Origin: Escherichia coli
GTDB lineage: Bacteria; Pseudomonadota; Gammaproteobacteria; Enterobacterales; Enterobacteriaceae
Assembly: GCF_051903065.1 (NCBI RefSeq)
Contig: NZ_CP178439.1
DNA length: 64,000 nt
Direction: 5' to 3' (one strand)
Shown: piece by piece, positions 9,731 to 64,000 of the stretch
How the letters are laid out: every line of letters begins with the position of its first letter
Numbering within the stretch: position 1 is the stretch's first letter
Position numbers and translations under genes: made by a program
The notes under the pieces: model-generated
The model's input: the letters and a program-made list of their open reading frames with translations, nothing else
The model's database searches: none
Told to the model about the DNA's origin: nothing

Positions 9731-12412
9731 ATGGAAGCTATCAATAATTACAATAGCGGTTTAAATCGCCATCAATTAGGTGGGTTTATCCCTGTTTACG
9801 ATCAATTAGCAGGGACTCACTATTTTTTGATTGATGGCAACAGATTAGGGTTTATGTTTATCTGTAATCCATCACCTGGAGTTTTTGATAATCAGCAAGA
9901 TGTTCTTGCTGAAATGTTCAAAATGGATTTTCCTACAGATACTGTCTGTCAAATATCTCTGACTGCATTGCCAGACTTGACTTTACAGCTTAGTGCTTGG
10001 TCAGCTGTGCGAGGTGGGCGTATGACTGGGAACGATAAGCTTAAAGCAGATCTGCTTAATGGTTATCAGTTGGACTACTACGACAGAAGTATGCATAAGC
10101 CTTTAAAACCTGATCATGATAACCTTATGTTGAGGGATTTTCAGGTATGGATCTCGCTATCGATTCCTTTACAGTCTGCCCTTCCTACCGAGCTGGAACA
10201 TTCGCGTATCGATTCACTTTACTCTGAACTTGTAAGTAAGTTAATTACGATTGGACTGCATCCGTTTAAGGTCGATGCAGAAAACTGGCTCTATTGTATA
10301 GATAAGGTCGTAAACCCCGGAAAGAACTCTCGGTGGGCTGAAGGTTTTATAGACGTTAACACTATGAAAAGGCTTAATGAACAAGTTAACGTTCCCGGCC
10401 GAAAGTATACAGTCACAGAAAATCATTTCTCATCAGTCACACAAAGTGACGACGAATCTGAGCATCGTTACTTCAAACAACTTTCCGTTGTAAAGTTTCC
10501 TGAATACGTCAATTTCGGTTGTATGTATGAGTTAGTAGTTAACTGGATGCATGGACGTAAGACAATTTTCAGCCCATTTATGATCACTCAGACTGTTCAG
10601 TTTGCCGATCCGCTCAAGTTGTCAAAAGAAAACGTCCGCTACAAAGCAATCACTAATAAACAGGCAAGTATACCTTCAGTTGTCACATTCTGCCCTCGCC
10701 TGCGGGATATGGATAATGACTACATGGCCGTAACTCGCGAGCTTGAGGATGGCGCAAAGCTTTTAAGAGGGTATCTTACTTTCACTGTTATGGGTAGTAA
10801 TGCCAATTCTGTGCAGACAGCAGCTAACGATCTCAAATCCTTTTACCTCGAAAGCCGGGTCAAAGTAGCAGATGATTCCTTTATCGTTTTCCCGTCATTT
10901 ATGTCATGTCTGCCAATGTGCAATGACCCAAAGACAATTTTCGACCTTGACCGTTCCGAAGTAGTGAGCAACACCGGAGCGGCTCATATGACGCCGATCT
11001 TTGGGCCCTGGAAAGGTAATACAGATAGACCAGTACTGAGTTTAGTTTCTCGTGAAGGTCAACTCATGGGACTTGATATTTTCAAGACTTCTGCAAGCTA
11101 TAACATGGTTATTGGTGCAACGTCAGGTGCAGGCAAGTCATTCTGGACAGCATATCTAATCAATAACTATCTTGGAGCTGGACCGCGATCTAATAACCTC
11201 GTTCATTATCGCTCAACATTTAAGCATTTTTTAGAAAACGAATACCCAGATGATGATCCTGATGGTGCTCAAGTTTTTGTAGTGGACGTGGGGCGTTCTT
11301 ACCAGGGGATTGCGGAACAATATACAAACAGTCAATTTATTGATTTCGGTAAAACCCCTGACTTCACCCTAAATCCCTTTGCCTTCCTAACTGACATCAC
11401 TGTTAACGACGATGTATTTAACGAAGCACCTGAATTTACCGGTGAATCAACTTCAAACGATGCAGAAAAAGACAAAGTTGCTCAGACCATAATGGTTCTG
11501 AATCAGCTAAAAATTATGGCTTCAGAGAAAGGCCTTATCGATGATTATCAACAATCAGTGATGCTTCAGCTTATTGCAGAAGAGTACCAGGAATCCAGAA
11601 AATCAGGTCGGACCGGTTCAATAACCGGCTTTGCTCTGCGTTGCAAGAAGCATGAAGACAAACGTATAAAGGATATTGGGGAGCAACTCGGAGCATGGTG
11701 CGAAGGTGGAATTTATGGGCACCGGTTTACCGATACGTTGCCTCCAATCAACTTCGACAGCAGATTTATTGTTTTGGAACTGGAGGAGCTAAAAGGCACC
11801 CCCCACCTTCAGACAGTTGTTTTAATGTCTATCATTCAGGCTGCTCAGCATGCAATGTTCATCAAAAAAGATGGGCGTCGTCGCTTGTTCATCCTAGATG
11901 AAGCTTGGGAGTACATTCGTCCTGATAATTCATCAGGTGCCGGAAATCAATCAAACCAATTCTTCTCTTCCTTCCTCGAAGCGGCATGGCGTAGGTTCAG
12001 GAAAACAAACTGCGCTGGCATCTGTATCACACAGTCGTTTGAAGATTATTTTACTTCTTCTGTTGGCCGGGCCCTGACTGCTAACTCGCCTTGGAAGATA
12101 ATCATGAAACAAGAAAAAGAAAGCATTGAAGCAATGAAGGCTAATAAATATTTTTCTACTTCAGATGCAGAATATGAACGAATGAAAAATATTCGTACAG
12201 TCAAAAAGGTGTTTTCAGAGATGTTAGTCAGGTTCGAAAACTTCCAAGAGATCTGTCGGTTATACGTAGACCGGAAAATGGAGCTTTGTTTTACTACGGA
12301 TAGTGCTGACAGGAGTAAATTATGGGAAATTCAAAGCCGCGAGAATTGTAGCTATGGCGAGGCAATAGAAATTCTCTATGCTCAAGAAGTAGCAGCGGGT
12401 TTGGCCGCGTAG
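9731..12412 (+). CDS. trhC: TraC-like (VirB4 family) conjugative ATPase
   Basis: 893 aa; Walker A GATSGAGKS; Walker B-like LFILDEAWE; size and position typical of F-type TraC. Confidence 0.85.
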   Translation: MEAINNYNSGLNRHQLGGFIPVYDQLAGTHYFLIDGNRLGFMFICNPSPGVFDNQQDVLAEMFKMDFPTDTVCQISLTALPDLTLQLSAWSAVRGGRMTGNDKLKADLLNGYQLDYYDRSMHKPLKPDHDNLMLRDFQVWISLSIPLQSALPTELEHSRIDSLYSELVSKLITIGLHPFKVDAENWLYCIDKVVNPGKNSRWAEGFIDVNTMKRLNEQVNVPGRKYTVTENHFSSVTQSDDESEHRYFKQLSVVKFPEYVNFGCMYELVVNWMHGRKTIFSPFMITQTVQFADPLKLSKENVRYKAITNKQASIPSVVTFCPRLRDMDNDYMAVTRELEDGAKLLRGYLTFTVMGSNANSVQTAANDLKSFYLESRVKVADDSFIVFPSFMSCLPMCNDPKTIFDLDRSEVVSNTGAAHMTPIFGPWKGNTDRPVLSLVSREGQLMGLDIFKTSASYNMVIGATSGAGKSFWTAYLINNYLGAGPRSNNLVHYRSTFKHFLENEYPDDDPDGAQVFVVDVGRSYQGIAEQYTNSQFIDFGKTPDFTLNPFAFLTDITVNDDVFNEAPEFTGESTSNDAEKDKVAQTIMVLNQLKIMASEKGLIDDYQQSVMLQLIAEEYQESRKSGRTGSITGFALRCKKHEDKRIKDIGEQLGAWCEGGIYGHRFTDTLPPINFDSRFIVLELEELKGTPHLQTVVLMSIIQAAQHAMFIKKDGRRRLFILDEAWEYIRPDNSSGAGNQSNQFFSSFLEAAWRRFRKTNCAGICITQSFEDYFTSSVGRALTANSPWKIIMKQEKESIEAMKANKYFSTSDAEYERMKNIRTVKKVFSEMLVRFENFQEICRLYVDRKMELCFTTDSADRSKLWEIQSRENCSYGEAIEILYAQEVAAGLAA

Positions 12413-12442
12413 AGTAAATATCTTCAAGCAAAAACAATTAAA

Positions 12443-12471
12443 CCAGATGTCTCATAAGAATCTGGTTTTTT
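12443..12471 (+). terminator. Hairpin plus T-run after trhC
   Basis: CCAGATgtctcataagaATCTGG followed by TTTTTT. Confidence 0.5.
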
Positions 12472-12829
12472 ATTGTATGCCTTAAGTAAACAAATGAGGT
12501 TATGACTTAATGAGTTCATCACTGTGCTGCAAATTTTGGTTTTATAATTAATATGGCTTAAAAACAGTGACATAATTACAAATCGCATTTAGGTTGTGTA
12601 CGCATTAAGTAAACAAAATTTATAACATCAATACTGACTTTATAAGATGAAATTCACGTAAATTACATTTTTGTTTACCAAAGGTAATCAAAGGAGCGCG
12701 GCATTATTAGTGAAAACAGATCACTGGTGTCATATTGCATACAAAACTTAATATCCTTTAATCATTCTTCTAAAAGTTTAATATTAACGCTTTGGTTTAT
12801 GAAAATTTATCCAATTTGCTCACCGAAGA

Positions 12830-15800
12830 CTTTTAACTTATTTAACCCCCTTTATCGCCAATCTGTGATTTTCTAATGTTAGCCTACAGTTCTAGGGCCC
12901 TTGCTCCCATGATGCGAATCCTTCCACCTAATAAAGATTAACGCCTCATTCCTGTATGCCGGTCTTACGACGCCAGTGCTCGGGCTATTTTCGGTCCTAA
13001 CAAGACCTGGCGAGAGATTTAATCAGGGCGTGGTGTGACTGAGCAGCAGCTGGGGCACTGTTATCCGCTTGCAGATTTAACCCCCTTAATCGCCAAACTG
13101 GGGTACTGTCCTGATGCTGGCCTTCAGTTCTGGGCTGGGTGGCTATCACTTCCTCCCATAATGCGAAATGTAACTGCTGATACAGATTAACGTCATATTC
13201 CTGCGTGCCGGTCTGCCAACACCAGTGCACGGGCTTTTTTCGGTCATCACATTACCGGGCAGGAGATTTTATCAGGGCGTGGTGTGACTGAGCAGAAGCT
13301 GGGGCACTGTCAGCAGCTTGCAGATTTAACCCCCTTAATCGCCACACTGGGATTCTGGTCTGATATTGACCTTCCGTTCTGGGCGGGGTTCGGTTTGCTA
13401 ACACTTACTCCCATGATACGAAATGTGCCTGCTGATACAGATTAAAATCACATTACTGCATACCGGTCTGCCGACACCGGTGCATGGGCGATTTCCGACG
13501 ATCTCAAGAACATATGGGAGATTATATCAGGGAGAGTAGTATGCCTGAGCAGCATCTGAAGGCACTGTCAGCCGCTGTCAGATTTAACCCCCTTAATCGC
13601 CAAACTGGTGTTCTGTCCTCATGCAGGCCTTCAGTTCTGAGCTGGGTTGCTATCACTTGCTCCCATAATGCGAAATGTACCTGCTGATACAAATTAACGT
13701 CGTATTCCTGTATGCCGGTCTGCCGACACCAGTGCTCGGGCTATTTTCGGTCCTAACAAGACCTGGCGAGAGATTTAATCAGGGCGTGGTGTGACTGAGC
13801 AGCAGCTGGGGCACTGTTATCCGCTTGCAGATTTAACCCCCTTAATCGCCAAACTGGGGTACTGTCCTGATGCTGGCCTTCAGTTCTGGGCTGGGTGGCT
13901 ATCACTTCCTCCCATAATGCGAAATGTAACTGCTGATACAGATTAACGTCATATTCCTGCGTGCCGGTCTGCCAACACCAGTGCACGGGCTTTTTTCGGT
14001 CATCACATTACCGGGCAGGAGATTTTATCAGGGCGTGGTGTGACTGAGCAGAAGCTGGGGCACTGTCAGCAGCTTGCAGATTTAACCCCCTTAATCGCCA
14101 CACTGGGATTCTGGTCTGATATTGACCTTCCGTTCTGGGCGGGGTTCGGTTTGCTAACACTTACTCCCATGATACGAAATGTGCCTGCTGATACAGATTA
14201 AAATCACATTACTGCATACCGGTCTGCCGACACCGGTGCATGGGCGATTTCCGACGATCTCAAGAACATATGGGAGATTATATCAGGGAGAGTAGTATGC
14301 CTGAGCAGCATCTGAAGGCACTGTCAGCCGCTGTCAGATTTAACCCCCTTAATCGCCAAACTGGTGTTCTGTCCTCATGCAGGCCTTCAGTTCTGAGCTG
14401 GGTTGCTATCACTTGCTCCCATAATGCGAAATGTACCTGCTGATACAAATTAACGTCGTATTCCTGTATGCCGGTCTGCCGACACCAGTGCTCGGGCTAT
14501 TTTCGGTCCTAACAAGACCTGGCGAGAGATTTAATCAGGGCGTGGTGTGACTGAGCAGCAGCTGGGGCACTGTTATCCGCTTGCAGATTTAACCCCCTTA
14601 ATCGCCACACTGGGGTTCAGTCCTGATAGTGTCCTTCCGTCCTGGGCTCGGTTGCTAACACTTGCTCCCATTGCGCCTGCTGATACAGATTAAAGTCACA
14701 TTACTGCATACCGATCTGCCGACTCCGGTGCATGGCTTTTTCCGATAATCACAAGGACGGACGGGTGATTTTATCTTTGCATAGTATGTCTGAGCAGCAT
14801 CAGAAGGCTCTGTCAGCCACTGGCAGATTTAACCCCCTTAATCTCCAAACTGGGATCAGTCCTGATAGTGTCCTTCCGTCCTGGGCAGGGTTGCTAACAC
14901 TTGCTCCCATGATACGAAATGCGCCAGCTGATACAGATTAACGTCTCATTACTCCATGCCGGTCTGCCGAAACTGGTGCATAGCTTTTTTCGATATTCGC
15001 ATGAACAGACGCTTGATTTTTTCAGGTTGTAATATACCTGAGCAGCATCTGAAGGCACTTTCAGTCTCTGTCAGATTTAACCCCCTTAATCGCCAATCTG
15101 GGATTTTCTGATGTTAACCTACAGTTCAAGGCCCTTGCTCCCATGATGCGAACCTTGCAACCTGATAAAGATTTAAGCCTCATTCCTGTATGCCGGTCTT
15201 ACGACTCTAGTGCACGGGGACTATTTTCGGTCATAATAAGACCTGGCGGGAGATTTAATCAGGCGTGGTGTGACTGAGCAGAAGCTGGGGCACTGTCAGC
15301 CGCTGGCAGATTAAAACCCTTTATTCGCCATCTCAAGACGTCATTATGGGTAGTCCTTTTAACTTTCTAAGGACCATTAAGCTTAAACTCCGTTTAGAGA
15401 ATGACGTAAGATTTAGGCTAAGCAGGTTAAGTGATCCCCGCTCCCGGGTTGAACACTTTATTCATCGTACGAGCGAAAGATTGTCCTTCGGGAAATATTT
15501 CTTATACACCGCTCGGGCACTTACAGCCACTGGCGGATTTAACCCCCTTAATCGCCAAACTGGGGTACTGTCCTGATGCTGGCCTTCAGTTCTGGGCTGG
15601 GTGGCTATCACTTGCTCCCCTAATGCGAAATGTGTCTGTTGATACAGATTAACGTCATTTTCCTGCGTGCCGGTCTGCCGACACCAGTGCACGGCCTTTT
15701 TTCGGTCATTACATTACCGGGCAGGAGATTTTATCAGGGCGTGGTGTTACTGAGCAGGAGCTGGGGCACTATCAGCAGCTTGCATATTTAACTCCCTTAA

Positions 15801-16410
15801 TCGCCAAACTGGTGTTCTGTCCTCATGCTGGCCTTCAGTTCTGGGCTGGGTTGCTATCTCTTGCTCCCATAATGCGAAATGTATCTGCTGATACAGATTA
15901 ACGTCATATTCCTGTATGCCGGTCTGCCGACACCAGTGCTTGGGCTATTTTCGGTCATAACAAGACCTGGCGAGAGATTTACTCAGGGCGTGGTGTGACT
16001 GAGCAGCAGCTGGGGCACTGTCATCCGCTTGCAAATTTAACCCCCTTAATCGCCAAACTTGGGTTTTGTCCTGATGCTGGCCTTCCGTTCTGGGCGGGGT
16101 TGCTATCACTTGCTCCCATCATGCGAAAAGTGCCTGCTGATACAGATTAACGTCATATTCCTTCATGCCGGTCTGCCGACACAAATGCACGGGCTTTTTT
16201 CGGTCCTTACAATACCGGGCAGGAGATTTAATCAGGGCGTGGTGTGACTGAGCAGCAGCTAGGACACTGTCAGCCGCTGGCAGATTTAACCCCCTTAATC
16301 GCCACACTGGGGTTGCCTCCTGAAGTTGGGTTTCAGTTCTGGGCTAGGTTGCTAACTCTGCTCCCATAATTCGTAGTGGGCCTACTCAAGAGATTAACAC
16401 CTCATATCTT
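12830..16410. repeat. Tandem array of about 15 units of about 249 bp, including a near-identical 756-bp (three-unit) duplication
   Basis: Anchor CAGATTTAACCCCCTTAATCGCCA recurs at about 12836, 13072, 13321, 13579, 13828, 14077, 14335, 14584, 14824, 15072, 15306, 15534, 15782, 16032 and 16281; track ORF pairs 12997..13230 / 13753..13986 and 13484..13687 / 14240..14443 are identical. Confidence 0.9.
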
Positions 16411-16711
16411 TAGACTGGACTGACGACAACGATTCACAGTTAGGAAACGTAAATCAGCACACCGGTGAGATAGATTTTAGGGTCTAAGCAAGAAATAGGG
16501 TAGGCGTGAAGATTCATTAATGGAGCTCATAACGTCAAAGCGTAGAGAAGTCGACAAGAATCGTGGTTTAAAAAGAATGAGCATTAGGTATGGACTAGAG
16601 AGTCTGAGCTCTCATCTGCAAGTTAAGCTCACAAAAAATCATAAAAAAGTAAACAAACATTAGCTTAGGATTGAAACAAAGGATAGAATTGTACGTATAA
16701 CAATGAAATGG

Positions 16712-16749
16712 ACGCATTATGCGTAAAGTTTACATATATGCGTAAAAGT
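16712..16749. promoter_or_regulatory. Palindrome ACGCATTATGCGT and nearby ATGCGTAAA half-site upstream of parA; candidate operator
   Basis: Perfect 13-bp palindrome about 55 bp before the parA start; type I ParA proteins with N-terminal extensions autoregulate at such sites. Confidence 0.3.
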
Positions 16750-16777
16750 CGGTTTTCAGTGCAAAAAGGTCATAACC

Positions 16778-18031
16778 ATGAATTTACTTGAAAAGATCGC
16801 CCTCGTTGGTCAGCGCATGAAAAGCGAGCAGATTTCTCTTAAGGAATCTCTGATGGCTTCATCAAGAGTATCTGTTTCTGATGATAGTGTTGATGGTGTT
16901 GATAGACTGATCTACAACCACTGTTTAAATAAAAAAAATCTCTCTGATTTTTTTGGGAAGTCACGAGTAACGTTCAATAAAATACTTTCGGACTTAGAAG
17001 AAAAAGAACTTGTTGGTGCACCTATTTATCAAAACAAAAATCATCTTTACACCCGCTGGGATGTTCAAAAAATAATGGATGCCCTGGGTTATCCCAAGTA
17101 CCGCGATCATTACTTTAGCAGAGCTATTGTTACTCAGAATCATAAAGGCGGTACAGGGAAAAGCACTACATCTGTAGCTTTAGCAGTAGCAGCTGCTTTA
17201 GATCTACAACTGAATGCACGTGTATTAATGATCGAATGGGACCCACAAGGTTCGATTGGAAGCAGCATGATTCAAAGTGTCTCAGAAGATGATGTCTTCC
17301 TTACAGCAATTGATGCAATCCTTGGAATTTATGAAGAAAATTCTGAGTATAAAAAATATTTAGATTCAGGATTCTCTGAAGAAGAAATCATCACTAATAT
17401 GCCTTTTTCAACGCATCTGCCAAACTTGGACGTGATAACGGCATTTCCGACAGATGCTCGTTTTAAAGATAAATACTGGCAATGTTCTAGAGAAGAACGA
17501 ACGTCTTTGTTACTACGTTTCAAGGAAGTTATCTTACCGGTACTGAAGCAGAACTATGATTTGATTATTATAGACACTCCACCTGAAGATTCACCTTTGA
17601 TCTGGGCTGCTGACGAAGCGGCCGATGGGATTCTTGTCGCAGTGTCACCACGTGAATATGATTACGCCTCTACTACAGACTTCATGCTTACAATAAGTGA
17701 AAGGTTTAAACAATCACCAAGTAAGGGCGATAATTTAAAATGGTTCAAAGTTCTTGCTGTCAATGTTGATGACAAAAGTCCATATGAAAGAATAGTTTTG
17801 GATAAATTAATCAGAACTGTTCAGGACCTTTTGATGTCCGCTAACATAAAAAATTCTGAAGCATTTAAGGCAGCTGCTTCCAAAGGGCGTACAGTGCTTG
17901 ATATCAAAAAATCAGAGGAACTTTGTTCCGCAAAGCAACTTGATGTCGCAGAAGAATCTGTATTACAGGTATATCAACAATTTATAAATGAAATAAAAAG
18001 TTTTTCAGCTAAGCAAGGAGTTAACGCATGA
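16778..18031 (+). CDS. parA: Partition ATPase ParA (type Ia, Walker type with N-terminal extension)
   Basis: 417 aa; deviant Walker A KGGTGKSTT; long N-terminal region typical of SopA/P1 ParA-type proteins. Confidence 0.85.
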   Translation: MNLLEKIALVGQRMKSEQISLKESLMASSRVSVSDDSVDGVDRLIYNHCLNKKNLSDFFGKSRVTFNKILSDLEEKELVGAPIYQNKNHLYTRWDVQKIMDALGYPKYRDHYFSRAIVTQNHKGGTGKSTTSVALAVAAALDLQLNARVLMIEWDPQGSIGSSMIQSVSEDDVFLTAIDAILGIYEENSEYKKYLDSGFSEEEIITNMPFSTHLPNLDVITAFPTDARFKDKYWQCSREERTSLLLRFKEVILPVLKQNYDLIIIDTPPEDSPLIWAADEAADGILVAVSPREYDYASTTDFMLTISERFKQSPSKGDNLKWFKVLAVNVDDKSPYERIVLDKLIRTVQDLLMSANIKNSEAFKAAASKGRTVLDIKKSEELCSAKQLDVAEESVLQVYQQFINEIKSFSAKQGVNA

Positions 18032-19032
18032 GCGATGAGCAACATATCGGGAATGATAAATCTCGATATTTAAACGCACCAAAGCGGACAGAAGTCGGTC
18101 ACCGTTCAGGTCTTGCGGGTTTGAAAACAGCACCTCGCATAAAAAAGTTATTCACTCTTCATAAGGGCCGAAGACTTGAAGCGGAACATGTGATTGTTCC
18201 AGCCCAGAGAGTGGAGAAGGAGACCTTAGTCCATCCAGCAAACCCACGAAATCAAGAAGCCCTTACAGATTATTCTGTTAGAGATATTCTTAAGCAGATT
18301 GAAGAAAGAGGGGTCGATACCGAAGGGATCGCTGTAAAAAGAGATGGGGTTTATTTATTAATAGAAGGAAGTCGCAGACGTTTCTGCTGTATAAAGGCAG
18401 AAAAGGATCTCCCCCTGTGGGTACTACCGGATGAACTAACCGAAGATGATATAAATTCAATTATATCCGCAGCACAAACATCTCGAAAATTTTCATATAG
18501 AGAAGTTGGGTTTCAATTTATCAAGAAAATGGAAGAAAAGGGATTTTCTACTAATGAAGAACTCGCAGCATATCTTGGGATTAGTCATGTATCGGTAGCC
18601 AAAAGAATCCAGGCGGCCCGTATTGACGAAACATTGATCTCTTTATTCCCGGATTATGAAGGAATACCGAACTCCTATTATAGTCGCTTGTCTCGTTTAC
18701 AGAAATATGTGCAAAAAAATCTATTTCCTTTAGATGAAGTAATAGATAATGTTAAAGAGGAAACAAAAGATTTAGACATTGGAGATCTCCAAGTTGCCCA
18801 AAAAGTTGTAATGGAGAAAATCACACAAGCTGTGGAAAGTGTTTGTGAAAAATCTTATTCCACAAAATGGGAAACAAGTGATCTTATTACTTTTGATAAC
18901 AAAGATAAGTATGCAAGAATCAGTAAAAACAATACTGGAAGAAAAATTCGCATTGAATTCAATAGGATAAGTGCGGGTTTTATTAAGGAGCTAGAGGAGT
19001 TCATAAAAGAAAAATTAAAAGTATCAGAATAA
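18028..19032 (+). CDS. parB: Partition protein ParB
   Basis: 334 aa, translationally coupled to parA (4-bp overlap); ParB-like GSRRRF box. Confidence 0.7.
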   Translation: MSDEQHIGNDKSRYLNAPKRTEVGHRSGLAGLKTAPRIKKLFTLHKGRRLEAEHVIVPAQRVEKETLVHPANPRNQEALTDYSVRDILKQIEERGVDTEGIAVKRDGVYLLIEGSRRRFCCIKAEKDLPLWVLPDELTEDDINSIISAAQTSRKFSYREVGFQFIKKMEEKGFSTNEELAAYLGISHVSVAKRIQAARIDETLISLFPDYEGIPNSYYSRLSRLQKYVQKNLFPLDEVIDNVKEETKDLDIGDLQVAQKVVMEKITQAVESVCEKSYSTKWETSDLITFDNKDKYARISKNNTGRKIRIEFNRISAGFIKELEEFIKEKLKVSE

Positions 19033-19037
19033 ATATT

Positions 19038-19062
19038 GAACTGCATCTTTATGATGCAGTTC
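19038..19062. terminator. Hairpin between the convergent parB and the minus-strand operon
   Basis: GAACTGCATCtttatGATGCAGTTC inverted repeat. Confidence 0.35.
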
Positions 19063-19093
19063 ATATGATTTATATTTTTAATTTCTTGTTATA

Positions 19094-19483
19094 TTAATAT
19101 GGGGTGTGCGCAGGTTCAGACATATAAGGTCTTAGTTCTATATGAACAGAAGCGCCATTCCCATCATTTACTACGTTTAAAGGTGCTTTGCCCGGCAATG
19201 ACATAGTTGCAACGTCAGGTCCAGAAACAGCAAAATTATTTTCTGCTGAAGGCATTACTGTAAAAATCTTTATAGCAACATTTTCATGTCTAAATAAAGA
19301 AATCCCAAAAGTAGAACCAGCTTCGGTATTGCTCACGTCCACAACCACAGGGGTTTTTCCTAGATATTCATTAGTTAGTATGTTTTTTACTAATGCCCCT
19401 TCCGGGACAGTATAGATACGGTATGGATATGCTAAAACTGAGTGACAAAAACATAATAAAATAACAATTAATGTTTTTTTCAT
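19094..19483 (-). CDS. Small exported protein, unknown function
   Basis: 129 aa with signal peptide MKKTLIVILLCFCHSVLA; last gene of a four-gene minus-strand operon. Confidence 0.55.
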   Translation of the reverse strand: MKKTLIVILLCFCHSVLAYPYRIYTVPEGALVKNILTNEYLGKTPVVVDVSNTEAGSTFGISLFRHENVAIKIFTVMPSAENNFAVSGPDVATMSLPGKAPLNVVNDGNGASVHIELRPYMSEPAHTPY

Positions 19484-21774: not shown

Positions 21775-22795
21775 AAATTCCTCTACGTATGTTTACATCG
21801 ATGATACGGTATTTCGAGCTATGATTTTTTTACATAAAGGCGTCATTTTGGATTCTAAGCCTAAGGACCTTTGTTACTTACTGGTAAAGGCTCCAGTCCT
21901 GGCTCTCAAACAGTTCATACTTAGGATGCAAAGTAACTTTCTGATTATAATTGGCTCCTTTATAAACATGTTTACTTCATGAATACAGGATATTTAACGG
22001 TAATGTATTTAAAATGGAAGGATGCTGAAATAACATAGAGTTACGTATTTTTTTAATAGTGTTGATGTTGATAATAGGTCACCATTAATGTATAAAGTTA
22101 ATATCTAATATGGTCCTATTAATAAAAGAGAGTTTTTATGGCTGAACTATTAAAATCTGAAAGTCCTGTTTCACAATCATTGCAGGATATCACTGAAGCT
22201 TTAAAAATCGTTGTCGATGATGGAAGTAAAGCTGCAAAACTGGTTTGTCTTAATGAAAGAAACGAATTAGTTCCCTTGCTCACACAAAATAGTTTTGTTC
22301 CAGATTTCCGTGTTCGCCATGAGGGTCTCAATCCTTTTAACTATCTTATTGATGGGCTGGAAAGGTTTTCGCATCACAGCGAATCTAGTAACTCACTGGA
22401 ATCGACTGATGTATCTCACCAATACGATGAAATTAGCCGGTTAAATGTTCACCATGCACTTCATGCTTCTGGTTTAGTTCCTCAGGATGTTCACCTCTTT
22501 GTTACTTTACCTCTTAGCCAGTTCTATACTGCTTTAGGGGAAACGAATATTGAAAATATTCAGAGAAAAAAAGATAACCTGATGAAACCAGTTGAGCGTT
22601 ATCTTGACGGTAAACGCTATTCTTTCAACGTTTTGTCTGTGACTGTTTTCCCTGAATCTTTACCAGCTGTGACCCGGGCAGATGAAATTGAGGATATTGC
22701 TTCATTTGAATCAAGTTTGGTAATTGATCTTGGTGGTACTACTCTTGATGTTGCAAGTATTACTGGGCAATTAGAACAGATTTCGAAAGTAAAAG

Positions 22796-23992
<1,197 letters not shown>

Positions 23993-62184: not shown

Positions 62185-64000
<1,816 letters not shown>

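Follow-up and report, generated by a model that had tools for sequence, protein, structure and literature searches.

A conserved array of ACGYAT hexamers upstream of parA as a probable ParA operator of the IncHI Par1 partition module

In the F plasmid, the promoter of the partition operon (PparAB or sopOP) carries short hexamers in direct and inverted orientation across the promoter, and cooperative binding of several ParA(SopA) dimers via flexible winged helix-turn-helix (wHTH) domains, with a higher affinity in the presence of ParB, has been proposed (PMC8465637). Binding itself was shown for F. In the corresponding operator of the P1 par system (parOP), two 16-nt arms separated by 10 nt form a single large inverted repeat, which is imperfect. 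According to the curated record, the operator begins in the promoter spacer, behind the -35 hexamer, and extends to the parA ATG, and the inverted repeat starts 1 bp after the -10 hexamer. It has been reinterpreted as TTATGC hexamers that lie 26-28 bp apart (PMC8465637). For F, P1 and P7, Boudsocq et al. proposed that ParA dimers bridge promoter hexamers at a spacing of 26-29 bp, the wHTH domains of a P1/F-like ParA dimer being about 10 nm apart (PMC8465637). A search of the accessible literature for descriptions of an operator or centromere of an IncHI par locus found nothing relevant. Here, we describe a candidate for each of them.

The stretch of DNA that was analysed (64 kb, in the following called the window) is part of an IncHI2 resistance plasmid of the R478/pAPEC-O1-R type. 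Positions 16400-19100 are 100% identical to hundreds of IncHI2 plasmids from Salmonella, E. coli and Enterobacter, e.g., pAPEC-O1-R, and a PLSDB query with this segment gave 1,128 matching records, 1,125 of them with at least 80% query coverage. In the annotation of pAPEC-O1-R, the open reading frames at 16778-18031 and 18028-19032 are ParA and ParB, and the pair is flanked by the conjugation gene trhC/traC on one side and by another partition module, parM of the actin type, on the other. The pair (16778-19032) represents the IncHI 'Par1' module, which is of type Ia. The actin-type module, i.e., parM and a small downstream gene, would be located at approximately 22138-23825 (placed by colinearity with 11739-13426 of the comparison locus L001), some 3 kb past parB; together with Par1 it would form a 'double partitioning' arrangement as in R27.

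The product of the first gene, parA (16778-18031, plus strand), is a partition ATPase of type Ia; it comprises 417 aa and has both an N-terminal helix and a winged HTH. A Shine-Dalgarno-like AAAGG can be read from the sequence at 16765-16769 on the same strand, 8 nt before the ATG. A phmmer search with ParA matched ParA2 of Vibrio cholerae and P1 ParA; the E-value is 5e-37 for ParA2 and 3e-17, at 25% identity, for P1 ParA. The NCBIfam SopA model scores 31 bits at a cut-off of 725, and SopA is a more distant relative. In the AlphaFold model (mean pLDDT 82), a helix (residues 3-26) and a flexible linker precede an HTH (52-59 and 63-75), which is followed by a beta wing (83-91) and the Walker ATPase domain. 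Residues 63-75, SRVTFNKILSDLE, represent the putative recognition helix. With Foldseek, about 410 of 417 columns of the model align with V. cholerae ParA2 (7NPE) and P1 ParA (3EZ2), whereas type Ib Soj-like ParAs align over approximately 295 columns only, i.e., over the ATPase domain alone. The modelled protein thus has the three-domain type Ia architecture, a large (~400 aa) Walker ATPase with an N-terminal winged HTH extension.

The second gene, parB (18028-19032, plus strand), has a 4-nt overlap with the parA stop codon; a large HTH ParB is encoded directly 3' of parA in one operon. Its product of 334 aa is a centromere-binding protein of the P1 ParB family. It contains Pfam domain PF08775 at residues 207-330 and can be aligned with P1 ParB over 306 residues, almost the entire protein, at 28% identity (E = 6e-31); its scores against the TIGR00180 and PRK13698 models stay under the cut-off. 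The intergenic DNA 3' of parB holds a terminator-like hairpin only and no repeat suggestive of a downstream centromere. This hairpin (19038-19062), GAACTGCATC-TTTAT-GATGCAGTTC, has a perfect 10-bp stem and is probably a bidirectional terminator; the 61 bp in which it is situated separate the parB stop codon from a convergent open reading frame ending at 19094.

The starting point of this analysis was a perfect 13-bp palindrome just upstream of parA, whose position, according to the original prediction, is the one expected for an autoregulatory operator of a type Ia ParA. The palindrome is indeed present: ACGCATTATGCGT occupies 16712-16724, with 6-bp arms around a central T (ACGCAT-T-ATGCGT), and ends 54 bp upstream of the parA ATG at 16778. 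We refer to it as palindrome P1; the partition system of the same name is always called the P1 par system or named by its genes and sites. The partial repeat that had been reported nearby was found as well: TATGCGTAAA occurs at 16718-16727 and again at 16737-16746, where the second copy provides the right arm of another palindrome (16732-16743), which is degenerate (ACATAT|ATGCGT). The centre of this palindrome P2 is 19.5 bp from the centre of palindrome P1. A further half-site, S1 (ACGTAT, 16693-16698, plus strand), is situated 19 bp upstream of the left arm of palindrome P1. Taken together, five ACGYAT hexamers, three forward and two reverse, form an array of short inverted repeats at 16693-16743 with a periodicity of 19-20 bp, 35-86 bp upstream of the parA start codon.

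On the level of letter statistics, palindrome P1 by itself is at chance level. Perfect palindromes with arms of 6 bp occur 30 times in the window if the spacer is 1 nt, and 16-30 times for spacers of 0, 2 or 3 nt. The hexamer ATGCGT/ACGCAT occurs 22 times, its complement included. More telling is the clustering: four exact ACGYAT/ATRCGT half-sites within 60 bp, starting at 16693, represent the densest cluster of the window, which was equalled in 2 of 300 mononucleotide shuffles, a count in which each palindrome scores twice by construction. Sequence statistics alone therefore give the palindrome weak support. The only other cluster of the same hexamer, at 63104-63490, was rejected: it lies inside an open reading frame of higher GC content (62907-63929, at the end of the window) for an IS21-family, istA-like transposase and is without palindromes, and is thus regarded as coincidental.

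Stronger evidence comes from the comparison with related plasmids. We compared the parA upstream regions of a second IncHI2 lineage, of IncHI1A plasmids (pHCM1/R27-like), IncHI1B-typed plasmids, a group of Citrobacter plasmids and three additional lineages from metagenomes. ParA identity among the compared lineages is 88-92%. On the DNA level, the upstream region together with the start of parA is approximately 76% identical between IncHI2 and the lineages of IncHI1 and Citrobacter. In the alignment, an island of conservation coincides with the block of 32 bp that is formed by palindrome P1, the spacer and palindrome P2 (16712-16743). Within this block, 27 of 32 columns (84%) are invariant across five lineages, compared to 82 out of 417 third codon positions of parA (20%) in the same five lineages and to 23-38% of the columns in other non-coding DNA (3/13 and 10/34 on either side of the block, 21/55 further upstream). 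No stretch of 32 columns in parA exceeds this conservation in the five lineages. Judged from the alignment, 16712-16743 is under strong purifying selection. The half-site S1 shares this pattern with five of its six columns invariant; it reads ACGCAT in the other lineages, except for one metagenome locus (L042).

What is conserved is the hexamer rather than the perfect symmetry. Over eight haplotypes with five hexamers each, positions 1, 2, 5 and 6 (AC..AT) are invariant in all 40 half-sites, and variation is confined to positions 3 and 4. Palindrome P2, degenerate in our sequence, is perfect in a C. werkmanii plasmid (ACGCAT|ATGCGT, ACGCATATGCGT) and, by a symmetric double change, in IncHI1A (ACGTAT|ATACGT, ACGTATATACGT). 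Palindrome P1, on the other hand, reads ACGCAT-T-ATACGT in the second major IncHI2 lineage, which accounts for about 450 plasmids or some 40% of IncHI2, and its perfect symmetry is also lost in two other lineages. As far as these alignments tell, the perfect symmetry of palindrome P1 is not conserved, while the ACGYAT consensus is kept.

The motif is also specific to the par locus. At up to one mismatch, ACGYATNATRCGT has palindrome P1 as its sole match in the window, and neither palindrome recurs elsewhere in the window or in pAPEC-O1-R outside this region (178.7 kb). This uniqueness on a complete IncHI2 plasmid makes a plasmid-wide regulon unlikely, and we have dropped this idea. The remainder of pAPEC-O1-R contains one cluster of three half-sites, which is located inside a coding sequence for an Ig-like-domain protein. 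A scan of public metagenomes for the block of palindrome P1 yielded 13 loci, and in 13 out of 13 the block was found 65-70 bp upstream of a parA homologue; in these loci, the conservation of palindrome P1 follows from the search pattern, whereas that of S1 and palindrome P2 is independent of it. In the promoter of the P1 par system (2262-2290 of locus L037), the spacer contains CTACGCATACAT and with it the IncHI-operator motif TACGCATA, which is probably a coincidence.

More distant ParA relatives with 45-68% identity are encoded by Klebsiella IncHI-like plasmids and occur in Xenorhabdus, Vibrio and Photobacterium. All of them have an inverted repeat at -120 to -45 from the ATG, but with a differing sequence, and the sequence goes along with the recognition helix of the respective ParA. 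SRVTFNKIL pairs with ACGYAT, SRNTFS(K/R)IL with TGCATT..AATGCA, SRVTFN(T/S)RI with TTAAACC-26 bp-GGTTTAA, and (S/T)KPTF(N/A)KK with TTTACCA..TGGTAAA. The site is unique on the plasmid, always found next to parA, and its four classes correspond to four recognition-helix signatures. In nine Vibrio/Photobacterium loci, the heptamers are exactly 26 bp apart. This is in good agreement with the 26-29-bp rule and connects the present clade of ParA proteins with the operator logic already known. Since ParA and ParB co-evolve, the co-variation alone does not separate ParA from ParB as the binder. A search of GTDB genomes for intermediates with a gradual change of the motif found no lineage with a ParA of 70-85% identity.

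Upstream, the operator region is bounded by a large repeat array. Fourteen direct iterons with the core TTAACCCCCTTAATCGCCA extend over 12842-16304; the core gives 14 matches at up to three mismatches, all on the plus strand, where 0.01 would be expected. The iterons are embedded in about 13 tandem repeats of approximately 249 bp (12842-16370), of which the core is the best-conserved part. Lineages of IncHI1, of Citrobacter and from metagenomes have the same 19-mer core in front of parA, here in tandem repeats of 54-56 bp with 6-19 copies, so it appears that the repeat unit was rebuilt around a conserved candidate ParB site. The core contains TCGCCA, which is the annotated B-type ParB site of P1 parS, preceded by ATTTAAC, which resembles the A-type site ATTTCAC of P1. 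In IncHI2, the iterons are found about 470 bp upstream, and in the other lineages approximately 140-330 bp upstream. From these sequence features, we consider the iteron array as the likely centromere (parS) of Par1 and as the putative binding site of ParB.

Several details of the array deserve mention. The iteron copies at 15077 and 15539 are unusually far apart, with a spacing of 462 bp (gap 15096-15538), indicating one repeat unit without a recognisable core, and Tandem Repeats Finder splits the array there into 12900-15330 and 15511-16370. A lookalike of the right half of the operator, ATAATGCGAAATGTAC, occurs in the 249-bp repeats; it is variable or deleted among the units and absent from the 54-56-bp repeats of the other lineages, and the resemblance was therefore discarded as chance. 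In IncHI1A plasmids of S. Typhi (pHCM1, locus L035, 1237-2349; locus L003, 84-1196), an IS421 element of the IS4 family is inserted about 450 bp upstream of parA. Six iterons remain on the far side of the element, at a distance of 1.7-2.0 kb from the operator and parAB. In L036, an IncHI1A plasmid that is free of the IS, 19 iterons are present, reaching -329. This split may affect the function of Par1 in pHCM1-type plasmids. The par locus of Klebsiella/E. coli IncHI1B(pNDM-MAR-like) plasmids (L011, 3641-6393 and 9684-9905) is flanked by a 66-bp repeat, with 42 copies upstream of the locus and 3.4 copies downstream of parB and with a different core, …AACAACCCCGTTGTTCGCAGTCGG…, and Vibrio plasmids carry a related motif, AACAACCCCCATTGTCCCC, upstream of parA. 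The candidate centromere motif thus diverges in parallel with the operator.

With regard to the promoter, the best positionally conserved -35/-10 pair is TTAGCT (16660-16665, plus strand; TTAGCG in other lineages) and TAGAAT (16684-16689, plus strand; TACAAT or TACTAT in other lineages), separated by 18 nt. It is a weak pair with 8 of 12 consensus matches and reaches the threshold used in four of five lineages; GTTAGC is invariant in the lineage alignment. The automatic promoter scan does not list this candidate. It lists only 16551-16578, which we rejected, as it is located in DNA that is not conserved outside IncHI2. Relative to this weak consensus prediction, the hexamer array starts 4 bp downstream of the -10. 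From the predicted promoter, a weak call, transcription would start at about S1, and the two palindromes would lie in the early transcribed region. For R27, expression of parA/parB was found to depend neither on temperature nor on HtdA, a regulator of transfer (PMC7366339), which fits a self-contained, self-regulated promoter.

Implementing all these observations, we propose that the hexamer array is the ParA autorepression operator of the IncHI Par1 operon, and we assign this sequence-based reading a probability of about 65%. With high confidence, we hold the broader view that the block represents a functional element acting in cis and belonging specifically to the par promoter. ParA as the binder, repression by binding and the position of the promoter are inferred. 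An operator fits the conservation of the array, its restriction to the par locus and the way it co-varies with the recognition helix of ParA. The original prediction holds as far as the position is concerned, as the gene encodes a type Ia ParA and the site lies between the predicted promoter and the start codon as in P1 parOP. It has to be corrected with respect to the unit, which is the array of five hexamers at 16693-16743 instead of the 13-bp palindrome.

The proposed mechanism would be as follows. ParA dimers bind the ACGYAT hexamers via their N-terminal winged HTH domains, probably in a cooperative manner, and ParB, acting as a co-repressor, probably helps ParA to bind. Bound ParA would occlude the promoter or the early transcribed region, resulting in autorepression of the parAB operon, which would keep the levels of ParA and ParB within the range suitable for partition. 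ParB itself would bind a different motif, i.e., the 14 upstream iterons. The iteron motif shows no relationship to the palindrome and thus offers ParB, the second DNA-binding protein encoded in the operon, a candidate site of its own; the palindromes, which share no sequence with the iterons, would need another binding protein than ParB.

The geometry of the array differs from the proposed rule. Spacers in the window are 0, 1 and 20 bp, with no partner hexamer at 26-29 bp, a distance that represents a proposed model (PMC8465637) and not an established definition of the family. In the tight palindromes, the centres of the half-sites are only 6-7 bp apart, which is awkward for a P1/F-like dimer with wHTH domains separated by about 10 nm. 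The hexamers can also be read as two wide pairs, S1 with the right arm of palindrome P1 and the left arm of palindrome P1 with the right arm of palindrome P2, each with a 20-bp spacer and offset by 19 bp. It is conceivable, though we regard it as speculative, that the 13-bp palindrome is the junction or by-product of two such interleaved wide inverted repeats, on which overlapping ParA dimers each bridge hexamers 26 bp apart, and that the ParB-parS complex acts in cis on the operator-bound ParA. Such a layout would be a compressed variant of the architecture with three overlapping ParA dimers that was proposed for F, P1 and P7. The cis action suggests itself from the location of the centromere array directly upstream of the operator and, if true, would couple centromere occupancy directly to par expression.

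Alternative explanations for the conserved block were considered. An unlikely one is that it serves another regulator of the plasmid or the host, or that its conservation derives mainly from core promoter elements. In its favour, the AT content of the region is high, and several regulators as well as H-NS-like proteins are known from IncHI plasmids (PMC7366339); a motif that is unique on the plasmid, however, does not provide a regulon, and the independence of R27 parAB from HtdA and temperature (PMC7366339) likewise speaks against this idea. Promoter hexamers within the block could be behind part of its conservation, e.g., TTTACA at 16729-16734, which resembles a -35 and is followed 16 nt later by a -10-like hexamer in the IncHI1 and Citrobacter lineages. 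This alternative -10 is absent in IncHI2, and neither the symmetry nor the repetition of hexamers every 19-20 bp is explained by -35 and -10 elements.

It is also quite improbable that ParB instead of ParA binds the hexamer array, which would then be a secondary, A-box-like site, with the iteron-nucleated partition complex repressing the promoter. ParB belongs to the P1 family, whose members have two DNA-binding modules, the iterons are close to the array in all lineages, and the motif co-varies with the whole operon, which fits ParB equally well. On the other hand, the palindrome has nothing in common with the iteron core, which has A-box-like and B-box motifs of its own, and the 3.5-kb iteron array does not contain a single ACGYAT palindrome. 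Moreover, the characterised binder of type Ia promoters is ParA, with ParB as a co-repressor (annotation of P1; PMC8465637). ParB, another regulator and core promoter elements each explain less of the evidence than the ParA operator.

An element acting on the RNA level, either a 5'-UTR hairpin involved in translation or stability or an intrinsic terminator on the minus strand, is very unlikely. The palindromes can pair in the predicted fold of the 5'-UTR, but the fold of 16696-16790 is no better than that of shuffled sequences (z = -1.05, 35 of 200 as good), no Rfam match was obtained in 12500-17000, and the variation at hexamer positions 3-4 is mostly one-sided and not compensatory. Among the hits of the terminator scan is a hairpin on the minus strand (16724-16712) with CCATTTCATT behind it; we rejected it as a Rho-independent terminator, given a 5-bp stem with three G-C pairs and a poor T tract, and no annotated or conserved minus-strand gene reads into it. 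Finally, a functionless chance occurrence, for which only the 30 equivalent palindromes in 64 kb can be cited, is hardly credible in view of 84% invariant columns versus 20% at neutral-like sites, the clustering of the hexamers, and the constant linkage of the motif to parA in plasmids and metagenomes.

From a practical point of view, plasmids of the IncHI2 and IncHI1 groups are important because they are major vehicles of resistance to multiple drugs, colistin (mcr) and heavy metals in Salmonella, E. coli and Enterobacter. They rely on the Par1 module for being stably inherited, and more than 1,100 PLSDB plasmids share exactly the par locus described here. A defined operator and centromere of Par1 would offer targets for plasmid-curing or incompatibility strategies. 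As the expected autoregulatory site of a well-understood class of systems, the operator will not surprise the specialist; most likely, it is a previously uncharacterised instance of a well-known type of site. It would nevertheless add a fourth class of hexamer and a different spacing to the few characterised ParA operators of type Ia (F, P1 and P7).

In comparison with the described systems, the direct homologue is Par1 of R27 (IncHI1). Its ParA is 88-89% identical, and the same block of S1, palindrome P1 and palindrome P2 as well as the same iteron core are found upstream, the iteron unit being approximately 54 bp in IncHI1 versus 249 bp in IncHI2. ParA2 of V. cholerae chromosome 2, a type Ia protein with an N-terminal domain, is the closest solved structure by sequence and fold. 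The ParA2 system is chromosomal, and its parS2 sites are dispersed.

The P1 par system shares with Par1 the type Ia module, the identical gene order, homologous ParA and ParB proteins and the three-domain fold of ParA, and the placement of the IncHI2 array relative to the candidate -10 parallels that of the P1 operator. The operators themselves differ: instead of one large inverted repeat, IncHI2 has two tight palindromes plus a half-site, built from another hexamer (ACGYAT) and readable as wide pairs with 20-bp spacers. The centromere of P1 is a single compact site with an IHF-binding site downstream of parB, and that of F is likewise located downstream of parB, whereas the IncHI2 candidate consists of 14 iterons upstream of parA. 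The F hexamer is CTTTGC with inverted partners 27-28 bp apart, compared to spacers of 20 bp or 0-1 bp in IncHI2. In its overall layout, the interleaved arrangement of five hexamers resembles the model for F.
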